From the IMG/VR virus record IMGVR_UViG_2721755711_000001: a stretch of 46,733 nt of DNA, one strand, 5' to 3'. Numbering within the stretch: position 1 is the first letter of the stretch; the number at the start of each line of letters is the position of its first letter. Positions 13,803-34,875 of the stretch are shown piece after piece. Origin of the DNA: a virus. Taxonomy: Duplodnaviria > Heunggongvirae > Uroviricota > Caudoviricetes. The notes beneath the pieces were generated by a model, which searched no databases, was not told where the DNA came from, and saw nothing but the letters and a program-made list of their open reading frames with translations. A program made the position numbers and the translations under genes.

Positions 13803-14117
13803 AGTGCGTTAGGATTGTGCCCTCATCTTAAGGATATTATTGATCATGCAGATTTTCTGGGCTATGCTAAAAAAGCCCCTTATAAAACGGGGGCCGGGAT
13901 TGGAACCCCAGAATTGCATACGGCGATATTTGACGCGCCAGCGTCTTTTTTATCGTCCACGTTCACGCACGCCAGAATTATGGTGGGCTGGGCAGGGGAG
14001 CCGAAAGGCTCGCCGGTTTCCGTATGCGCCGGTAGTTCCAACCCTGTTCAGTCCGCCACCAGCGAGCTTGGAACCTCCGGTGGTGGAAGTTATCCATTGC
14101 ATACGGAGGCTGCCATC

Positions 14118-22206: not shown

Positions 22207-22281
22207 GCGGGTATCGTATAATGGCTATTACCTCAGCTTTCCAGGCTGATGATGCGGGTTCGATTCCCGCCACCCGCTCTC
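22207..22281 (+). tRNA. tRNA-Gly (anticodon UCC), left-arm copy, slightly degenerate
   Basis: Cloverleaf readable by eye: acceptor GCGGGTA, T-arm GCGGG-TTCGATT-CCCGC, anticodon loop TTTCCAG; A7-C66 mismatch; 3' end reads CTC, not CCA. Confidence 0.55.
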
Positions 22282-23166: not shown

Positions 23167-23241
<75 letters not shown>

Positions 23242-23244
23242 ATA

Positions 23245-23320
<76 letters not shown>

Positions 23321-25527: not shown

Positions 25528-25701
25528 TCATTCCCAAACTACCTTGAAACCGAGCCTTTCCAGGTATTCAATGAATGCCTCGATAGATAAAATTACATGA
25601 TCATCAGGAATTAACGTTGCGTAGATAACTTCCCCATTCTCAACGCGCACAGCATAGAGGCCATTTTCACTAAAAATTTCACGCAATTCTTCGATTTTCA
25701 T
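25528..25701 (-). CDS. Small hypothetical protein
   Basis: ATG of MKIEELREIF chosen within ORF 25528..25770. Confidence 0.35.
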   Translation of the reverse strand: MKIEELREIFSENGLYAVRVENGEVIYATLIPDDHVILSIEAFIEYLERLGFKVVWE

Positions 25702-25954
25702 CAGCAGAATCCTTCTGGATAAATAACTTTCCCCTGTTTGGGGGCCATCCCTCTTCTCCCTGCGCGCCAATCAAGTAATGAGATTCTATTTCCCCCGTAA
25801 TTAGCCTCAAGAACAACAAATCACAAAAACACAAAAAGCCTGTTTGATTAAAAATAATCGTAACAAAAAACCCGTCGAAGCGGGTTAAGTACGGGGGCGT
25901 TGAAGATGCCTGACACATCAGAGGAGGCGGGAGATTTCTCTCCCGCCAGGTCTC

Positions 25955-26092
25955 TTACTCCTCAGGTTCGTAAGCTGTAAAGACAGCGACCTCCGTCTGA
26001 CCGATTCGGATTTGTACCTCACAGAGGTCTTTCCTCGTTACCAGTGTCGTCACTATGACGGTTAAACAGATGACGATCAGGACGATTAACAT
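25955..26092 (-). CDS. hok: Hok/Gef-family type I toxin (small membrane peptide)
   Basis: 45-aa ORF MLIVLIVICLTVIVTTLVTRKDLCEVQIRIGQTEVAVFTAYEPEE matches the Hok/RelF family as recalled; overlapping mok-like frame upstream; GC hairpin and T-run terminator downstream; below the ORF-track cutoff. Confidence 0.65.
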   Translation of the reverse strand: MLIVLIVICLTVIVTTLVTRKDLCEVQIRIGQTEVAVFTAYEPEE

Positions 26093-26550
26093 CACCTTTT
26101 GCTACTTTATAGCCTGCTATGCCTTTCATGCATTCTTGGCTATACTAACCTTATACCTACAACACGAGAGACGCAGAAATGACCGTTCATGGCATATCAA
26201 CAGGCAGTATCGTTCACTTACGTGAAAAAGATGGAGAATGGCTCGTAGTGCACATTCTTAATGACGACATTGTATATGTCCTCAAAAATGCAGATTCAGG
26301 TGAAGAAATAAAAGTCACTCTTCAAGACATCAATACACCCAATAAATAATCCCTCCACAATCCCACGGGGGGGTATTGTTCTTCTTATCATCACAACCGC
26401 ATCACACCACCAATTGCTCATTGCTGACAACACCCCAGCCATGCTACTCCTAAACGGTTTTATAGTGCTATAGCCCCGGATGTCTGTTGTCGTCAACAGA
26501 CATAACAAGCTAAAATAACAACATTCCCCAACAACGAAGGACTTAATACC

Positions 26551-26838
26551 ATGGCTCAGGTCTATTTTGATACTCTGAAATTCGTTGAAACCCTAGAAGC
26601 CGCCGGAATGCCTGCAGCACAAGCTCGCGCCATATCTGCTGCAGTAAAGGATTCTCACGAAGCGGCAGAAGTCGCTACAAAGCGCGACCTGAACGATGTT
26701 AAAACTGAACTAAAAAATGACATTGCTGCCATTGATGCAAAAATTGATAAACTCACCCTGCAACTGACTGTCAGATTTGGCGGGATGCTCGTCGTTGCTG
26801 TTGGCGCACTGGCAGCCATCATGAAGCTACCTCTTTAA
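26551..26838 (+). CDS. DUF1640-like coiled-coil protein with C-terminal transmembrane anchor
   Basis: MAQVYFDTLKFVETLEAAGMPAAQA N-terminus and hydrophobic C-terminus. Confidence 0.45.
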   Translation: MAQVYFDTLKFVETLEAAGMPAAQARAISAAVKDSHEAAEVATKRDLNDVKTELKNDIAAIDAKIDKLTLQLTVRFGGMLVVAVGALAAIMKLPL

Positions 26839-26946
26839 AAAACCAGCCCTAATGGGCTGGCTTTTGTTATCCCCAGCAGAAAATCGAATACACCACCAGC
26901 GCCACCGCCATCGCAATTCCTGCCGTTGTGAATGCTTCAGGCCAGG

Positions 26947-34599: not shown

Positions 34600-34680
34600 C
34601 TGCTCCGCTGTTAATAGAATAAAACGATCGATAAAACAGGTATCGATCGTTGGTATCGATCGTTTATGGTGGTTAATGGC
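34600..34680 (+). promoter_or_regulatory. Ag43 phase-variation switch: three Dam GATC sites (expected OxyR-binding region)
   Basis: GATC at 34626, 34645 and 34658 in AACGATCGATAAAACAGGTATCGATCGTTGGTATCGATCG, upstream of the Ag43 start. Confidence 0.7.
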
Positions 34681-34875
34681 CTGCGAAAAGGCAGCTGAAT
34701 CTCTTCATCATGCAGAACGGAATTGCACACAACGGACTGAAACTTCTCTGCCTGATGAAGGGTGAGAGCGTTTACGCCCGGGGCGTATCGCTCTGCCCGA
34801 TAACTCTGTTTTGTACCTGCCGGTATCCACTTTTGTGGATACCGGCTTTTTTTATTCACCCTCTGTAAGGAAAAG

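Follow-up and report, generated by a model that had tools for sequence, protein, structure and literature searches.

In the hok/sok system of R1, the Hok toxin is synthesised only if mok is translated as far as the hok SD (PMC9841398), and toxicity is abolished by any of several types of lesion: mutation of the second and third letters of the hok start codon, premature stop codons, and mutations of the start or stop of mok upstream of hok (PMC9841398). Genes for Hok are enriched in prophages (bioRxiv 10.1101/2025.08.07.668861), a characterised prophage homologue being the hokW-sokW locus of Sp5 (PMC8621323). Besides intact loci of this hokD/hokW type, E. coli carries a rearranged form, the K-12-type relB-relE-hokD cluster (relF, Qin prophage), in which a gene of hokD type has lost its mok, sok and leader. 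In this form hokD, complete with its 51 codons, its ATG and its SD (AGGAG), lies downstream of relBE and in the same orientation. Pedersen and Gerdes are said to have concluded in 1999 that a major rearrangement had inactivated hokD, IS elements being the cause in hokA, hokC and hokE.

The locus described here lies in a stretch of 46,733 nucleotides, the IMG/VR virus record IMGVR_UViG_2721755711_000001 (Caudoviricetes), which is called the window in its whole length. With the intact hokD/hokW-type loci of Rac, Sp5 (hokW-sokW), C7, M3, CP55 and strain 48 it shares the position in the nin region, the orientation, the 3' hairpins and the terminator and, in the stretch bounded by the hok SD region and the terminator, a nucleotide identity of about 92%. 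It differs from them in having no promoter, no 157-nt leader/sok region of the RF01794 type and no mok start, and, while their product has 51 aa, it has ATA in place of the start codon and TAG as the third codon, leaving a product, if any, of 45 aa. Compared with hok/sok of R1, a Hok/Gef peptide followed by a 3' fold-back region and a terminator is common to both, whereas the Sok RNA, the mok coupling, the tac/ucb/fbi switch and the locus's own promoter are absent from the window; each class of lesion in the window corresponds to a class that causes loss of toxicity in R1 (PMC9841398). The preliminary description of this DNA had presented the region as an unannotated type I locus of hok/sok type. 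Its Hok peptide and its 3' mRNA features are borne out by our analysis, but mok, leader and Sok are not, and we consider it likely that the locus is a decayed hok relic deprived of leader and antitoxin, not a functioning toxin-antitoxin system.

The residual Hok frame and its 3' region

The elements that survive in the window are the following:
25955..26092, minus strand: residual Hok ORF, 45 codons plus TAA, equivalent to codons 7-51 of a hokD/hokW-type toxin gene, with an internal start at Met7
25926..25947, minus strand: GC hairpin, conserved in the 3' UTR of hok, an inverted repeat with 9/9 positions paired
25893..25898, minus strand: putative equivalent of the fbi hexamer, GCCCCC (A>C at 25896) where relatives have GCACCC
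25863..25886, minus strand: intrinsic terminator of the hok transcript found by terminator scan, stem 25886-25869 followed by a T-run

An ATG at 26092 on the minus strand opens the 45-codon frame, which closes with TAA at 25957-25955 and has the product MLIVLIVICLTVIVTTLVTRKDLCEVQIRIGQTEVAVFTAYEPEE; an alternative GTG at 26095, one codon 5' of this ATG, would give 46 codons. The peptide matches the Pfam family HOK_GEF (PF01848) with 75.8 bits (E 1.9e-21), well above the curated cutoff of 22, over profile positions 2-42 of 42, and PHROG 251 ("MokW-like host killing") with 86.7 bits, its residues 1-44 covering profile positions 7-50 of 50, so that the first six positions of that profile are absent from it. 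The membership of the Hok/Gef family that had been claimed from the letters alone is thus confirmed. Against the Hok subfamily of NCBIfam the peptide scores 43.9 bits, under the cutoff of 73, and it lacks what full members possess, namely a full-length frame beginning with MKQQKA... and an SD ahead of the start codon. At the nucleotide level the identity to the hok genes of Rac and Stx phages is about 92%. Judged by its sequence, the frame is a genuine Hok/Gef homologue that represents the 3' part of a toxin gene. Near the Hok C-terminus, the Tyr codon TAC (25970-25972, minus strand) is retained in its TACG context.

That the locus is unannotated holds for the ORF track of the preliminary description only. 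PGAP has a CDS, WP_072278258.1 ("Hok/Gef family protein"), exactly at the equivalent of 25955-26092 in identical prophages of E. coli, and 332 public contigs encode the exact peptide, which goes by a Hok name there ("type I toxin-antitoxin system Hok family toxin"). The fragment has therefore already been named publicly, and its location and outcome, an inactivated prophage or chromosomal hok, are of a known kind. Some caution in annotation follows, given that a peptide can pass the Pfam and PHROG filters and receive a Hok name while its locus is devoid of the RNA elements of a toxin-antitoxin system: catalogues of Hok based upon peptides only, including those filtering for length (at least 40 aa) and stops, will count such relics as functional systems.

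The 3' UTR retains the hairpins and the terminator that belong to a type I locus, conserved with the relatives. The GC hairpin (GGCGGGAGA/TCTCCCGCC at 25926-25934/25939-25947) shows paired changes among them, and the terminator, also found in the prophage of M3, is co-oriented with the prophage early-right operon; the downstream hairpin and T-run terminator reported earlier are hence real. The fbi and tac roles of the hexamer and of its 5' counterpart would follow from the model of R1 hok (PMC9841398), by analogy. In the relatives the hexamer GCACCC is complementary to GGGTGC at their own 5' end, a partner which does not exist in the window. Folding of the hok remnant is better than that of shuffled sequence (z = -2.5). 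This value, the co-orientation of the terminator stem and a 3' UTR about as conserved as the ORF could be taken to mean that the retained piece matters as a signal in RNA or DNA, the 3' hairpins and terminator serving as a nin-region terminator for late expression dependent on antitermination, with an incidental ORF. We regard this as very improbable for the sequence at hand, since all lambdoid hok loci have this property, for which no ORF is required; moreover, it is compatible with a relic and hardly competes with it.

The same region, made up of two hairpins plus a T-run, gives a sub-threshold match to the isrK model, with 25.2 bits at 25865-25946 (minus strand) in the window and 33.2 bits in Rac (contig L001, 1504-1584, minus strand), the threshold being 50. 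An isrK gene at this position was rejected, the match being sub-threshold and alike in Rac, and the match was taken as structural resemblance. It may reflect just the shared shape of hairpin, spacer and terminator, or isrK-type RNAs may be related to the 3' ends of hok.

The missing 5' block and the lesions around the original start

Five intact loci were used for comparison: that of Rac, with annotated hok and mok (MN652886), those in the prophages of M3, CP55 and strain 48 (contigs L004, L005 and L006, respectively), which carry the full 51-codon hokD, and that of C7, which shares the flanking backbone of the window. The features that emerge in the 5' part of the locus are these:
26119..26131, no strand assigned: rearrangement junction, at which the homology to hok loci ends and about 201 nt of the intact loci have no counterpart
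26102..26110, minus strand: dead original hok start, ATA (26110-26108, formerly ATG), AAG, TAG (26104-26102, formerly CAG)
26019..26129, minus strand: leftover ORF in the mok frame, beginning at a fortuitous ATG of the junction (26129-26127); not a mok gene

Searched with megablast against phage genomes, the window matches hok loci, those of Rac and Stx phages among them, in positions 25862-26118 only, at about 92%. Homology to all five intact loci starts with the terminator and ends at the hok SD region; in M3, CP55 and strain 48 it restarts about 213 nt farther upstream, at a divergent small ORF that is the counterpart of 26179-26349. The BLAST alignment to L004 accordingly falls into two parts, 25867-26118 of the window with 2036-2287 of L004 and 26131-26351 with 2501-2720, and in a multiple alignment 201 columns, situated between the flank of ORF56 and the hok SD, are occupied in the three relatives but empty in the window. 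The exact breakpoint is ambiguous by a few nucleotides, owing to repeated AAGG motifs. In the intact loci the absent block comprises the promoter, the 5' leader with its tac/ucb elements, the start of mok, the sok/sokT region and the greater part of the hok SD. Compared with C7, positions 26119-26860 of the window, which hold ORF56 and a 95-codon DUF1640-like ORF, both on the plus strand, replace the segment of C7 bearing the leader. A distant blastn search with 26119-26560 and a tblastn search with ORF56, both against 50,697 phage records, returned no match that would point to the origin of this upstream segment.

How much of the regulatory RNA could nonetheless be present? The preliminary description expected a Sok RNA from the plus strand around 26090-26180 and a hok leader under the small ORF at 26179-26349, that is, a complete hok/mok/sok locus. 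This is scarcely credible, even if a Hok ORF, an overlapping upstream frame, a 3' hairpin and a terminator are indeed present. The Rfam model for sok (RF01794) has 157 positions on the hok strand, from the 5' end of the mRNA, GGGUGCUUGA, to the AUG of hok, and it recognises four relatives with at least 104 bits (strain 48, 121; M3, 111.5; Rac, 111.1; CP55, 104.6), all inside the block that the window lacks. It finds nothing in the window, either at the gathering score over the 46.7 kb or at E<=10 over a region of 901 nt. With as many as three mismatches allowed, neither the 5' tac motif (GGGTGCTTGAGG / GGGTGCTTGAGGCTATCTG) nor the mok-SD/sokT motif that the relatives have occurs anywhere in the 46.7 kb of the window, and an inverted-repeat search gave nothing that would pair the 3' end (25890-25915) with upstream sequence. 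The tac/ucb/fbi elements for which the leader was to be folded hence find no place here, and the claim of a Sok RNA falls as well. Besides the 201 missing nucleotides, a complete locus is contradicted by the nature of the sequence upstream of 26131, a separate divergent small gene which in intact loci lies beyond the leader, and by the plus strand at 25950-26178, in which the scan detected no promoter-like site.

On the minus strand the situation is similar. The hok promoter of M3 (TAGAAA-17-TAGAAT, L004 2484-2456) lies just 5' of the leader, within the deleted block, and a consensus scan of 26093-26600, of a kind that weak promoters could escape, found no promoter-like site on this strand. 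By eye, a weak promoter-like site can be read at 26282-26254 on the minus strand (AGGACA-17-AAGAAT, 8/12), which would speak against a silent relic.

The remaining 5' end of the gene carries several lesions. Four relatives have ATG AAG CAG CAA AAG GCG ATG TTA here, encoding MKQQKAML, for which the window has ATA AAG TAG CAA AAG GTG ATG TTA; the G>A at 26108 and the C>T at 26104 are specific to the window against four concordant relatives. Their SD, AAGGAG, reads AAGGCA in the window, although a deletion of 5 nt aligns equally well, and by our reading the sole purine-rich stretch near the ATG at 26092, AGGTGAT, overlaps this start codon. Altogether, 15 of 19 substitutions on the lineage of the window, counted on the minus strand of 25865-26118 against four intact hok loci, are GC>AT (C>T or G>A), as is every one of the 10 that fall between 26108 and 25979; this strong bias is consistent with relaxed constraint, small though the numbers are. 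The overlapping mok-like frame noted upstream of hok does exist as an ORF in the mok frame, but it is no mok: its ATG, formed at the junction, has no SD, and the frame ends early at TGA 26021-26019, produced by C>T at 26021 (CGA to TGA). The true mok start, which in Rac precedes the hok ATG by 58 nt, belongs to the block missing from the window. A leader deleted or replaced, together with start-codon and nonsense changes, places the locus among inactivated, relic hok genes as described for hokA-E of E. coli K-12, whose coding and 3' parts persist while rearrangement, insertion or point mutation has disrupted the regulatory elements.

Our preferred reading brings these lesions together. A hokD/hokW-type locus in the nin region of a lambdoid prophage of E. 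coli was reduced to its 3' remnant by a rearrangement that either removed about 201 nt or swapped in the module of ORF56 and the 95-codon ORF. The block lost in this way included the hok promoter, the leader (tac/ucb), the mok start with its SD, the Sok target and the sok gene; in addition, the hok SD is damaged, ATG has changed to ATA and codon 3 to TAG. Codons 7-51, the 3' UTR hairpins and the terminator are the survivors, left with no antisense antitoxin, mok coupling or fold-back switch and with no recognisable promoter or usable RBS. The ORF is therefore most likely silent, neither expressed nor toxic in vivo.

The loss of the leader recalls the K-12-type relB-relE-hokD arrangement. This arrangement is found also in E. 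coli ECDA1023 (contig L018) and Shigella flexneri SFBU0723 (contig L025), both without a tac motif, and there the homology breaks immediately upstream of the hok SD, no more than about 10 nt away from the independent junction of the window. The window thus adds one further example of prophage hok decay and a second independent loss of the leader with its breakpoint just 5' of the hok SD; recurrence of the breakpoint may be connected with the adjacent AAGG repeats. The two cases differ in what remains, for the window copy has lost the SD and start that the relBE-linked gene keeps. They differ also in their context: hokD follows relBE in the same orientation, whereas the copy in the window is preceded by a divergent small gene, and consequently no upstream operon feeds the hok remnant directly.

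Prophage setting and possible expression of the remnant

Around the locus, 2.5 kb of the window show 100% identity with prophages in the chromosomes of E. coli F2_407_2_2 and OkiPb01716. According to the PGAP annotation of these identical prophages, the locus occupies the nin region of a lambdoid prophage, between the replication gene P and the genes for DUF1367, DUF1364 and DUF1133 (Q-like) proteins; these genes, the tRNAs and the holins are all on the minus strand, co-oriented with the Hok ORF. Among 5,426 complete genomes of E. coli, 8 have the junction region, as do 4 contigs of IMG/VR, and an artefact of assembly was rejected on the ground that the junction is the same in all 12. Together with the ATA and TAG codons, the junction occurs in at least two prophage backbones, the type of the window and the YC21/RM type, which are 96.7% identical. 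Pattern searches of IMG/VR for the ATA/TAG allele or for the ORF56 flank of the window type recovered the same four contigs only, and these searches gave no intact ancestor, be it window-type ORF56 joined to a hok leader or the ATA/TAG allele with a leader. As the ATA/TAG allele is seen only with the junction, point lesions and rearrangement invariably go together in the sequences searched. In species-representative genomes there were 15 hits; each has the canonical ATG/CAG allele, and 10 of them have a tac motif about 160 nt upstream.

Some contigs with an E. coli-type hokD are filed under distant names, namely Xanthomonas pisi (L014), a Candidatus Scatousia MAG (L017), a Haemophilus MAG (L019) and a Veillonella parvula MAG (L026); these labels probably result from contamination of assemblies or from mis-binning.

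A few observations speak against the reading of the locus as a relic: the 45-codon ORF is intact in every copy (the 8 complete genomes, the 4 IMG/VR contigs and the 332 contigs with the exact peptide), the whole Pfam domain is kept and the structure of the 3' UTR is preserved. Intactness says little about selection, however, considering that the copies are at least 97% identical, with one amino-acid difference between two sub-variants. The same observations would suit a leaderless toxin that is still active. Since the ORF has the direction of the early-right operon, it would be transcribed by antiterminated read-through on induction, and a Hok of 45 residues starting at Met7 might then be made from N-antiterminated early-right transcripts and, in the absence of Sok, damage the membrane so as to aid lysis or phage release. 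In keeping with this possibility, the ORF points in the direction of P, the Q-like gene and the holin genes, retains the full Hok domain of Pfam, and is carried intact by an allele present in at least two prophage backbones; furthermore, HokW influences the release of Sp5 (PMC8621323), and 42 of 45 diverse Hok coding sequences proved toxic on overexpression (bioRxiv 10.1101/2025.08.07.668861). We nevertheless deem an active toxin unlikely. The original AAGGAG is lost and AGGTGAT, overlapping the ATG, offers no usable SD; the mok coupling is gone; the charged residues of the N-terminus, MKQQK, are missing; and nothing in the sequence would favour efficient initiation at Met7. The upstream ATA and TAG resemble inactivating hits rather than adaptation, and the copies are too alike to reveal purifying selection.

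A more elaborate version of the same idea would see in the remnant a domesticated Hok free of antitoxin. With neither a promoter of its own nor Sok, it would be silent in the lysogen; after induction it would be transcribed by read-through, translated from Met7 and help in the timing of lysis or in phage release. Such a role appears to us decidedly improbable. If it were true, the repeated loss of the leader at almost identical breakpoints, in the window as in relBE-hokD, would represent a route by which hok becomes rewired to new regulatory inputs.

Neighbouring small genes and other elements of the prophage

The segment upstream of the junction carries two ORFs on the plus strand:
26179..26349, plus strand: ORF56, small ORF of 56 codons, divergent from hok and not part of it
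26551..26838, plus strand: DUF1640/CCDC90-like ORF of 95 codons, PGAP CDS, PHROG 17872 with 70.5 bits

The preliminary description regarded the first of these as overlapping the expected hok leader and doubted that it was a gene. On the first point, the window contains no leader with which to overlap, and in the intact loci the homologue of ORF56 adjoins the leader from outside, beyond it and 245-270 nt from the hok start. On the second, homologues with 66-70% amino-acid identity lie divergently upstream of intact hokD in the prophages of M3, CP55 and strain 48, being annotated by PGAP in M3 and CP55, and the frame is open in all four diverged lineages, whose differences include in-frame indels. 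Values of dN/dS are 0.29-0.36 for the window against the others and higher, 0.27-1.03, among the three relatives. The exact protein has been called on 82 contigs, and a search of 5.8 billion proteins placed the family in three clusters, all unnamed; as to function, Pfam, PHROGs and NCBIfam gave nothing significant. With moderate confidence, the pattern of sequence change suggests that ORF56 is probably a real small gene.

Relative to loci of the M3 type, the window has about 517 nt extra after ORF56 (26352-26868), including the DUF1640/CCDC90-like ORF, which also matches the CCDC90-like family of Pfam, below the cutoff (30.7 bits). At 26843-26860, a hairpin accompanied by a T-run on either strand, that of the minus strand being read from the alignment, looks like a bidirectional terminator. 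Upstream of the 95-codon ORF, on the plus strand, lies a perfect 10-nt palindrome (ATGTCTGTTG/CAACAGACAT, 26480-26489/26494-26503, within a feature spanning 26480-26516) that overlaps the -35 of the only promoter-like site preceding this ORF; it may be an operator.

On the other side of the hok remnant, an 80-codon ORF with a TTG start (25528-25770, minus strand) matches PHROG 340 with 67.7 bits, whereas PGAP recognises no more than a partial pseudogene, at the positions that correspond to 25624-25701; beside the hok relic, the nin region may hold a further gene in decay. Three tRNA genes, at 22207-22278 on the plus strand and at 23170-23241 and 23248-23320 on the minus strand, lie between the Q-like gene and the holins; within the stretch covered of an identical genome, PGAP annotates tRNA-Gly and tRNA-Thr on the minus strand. 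Elsewhere in the same prophage, 13875-14063 (plus strand) is an antisense control region of immI/ant type, in which the Hfq-binding RNA isrK (57.9 bits) is directly followed by the C4 antisense RNA (82.9 bits), both above the Rfam gathering scores. A match to the Rfam IS102 RNA, with 65.4 bits against a gathering score of 46, is located at 34624-34860 on the plus strand.
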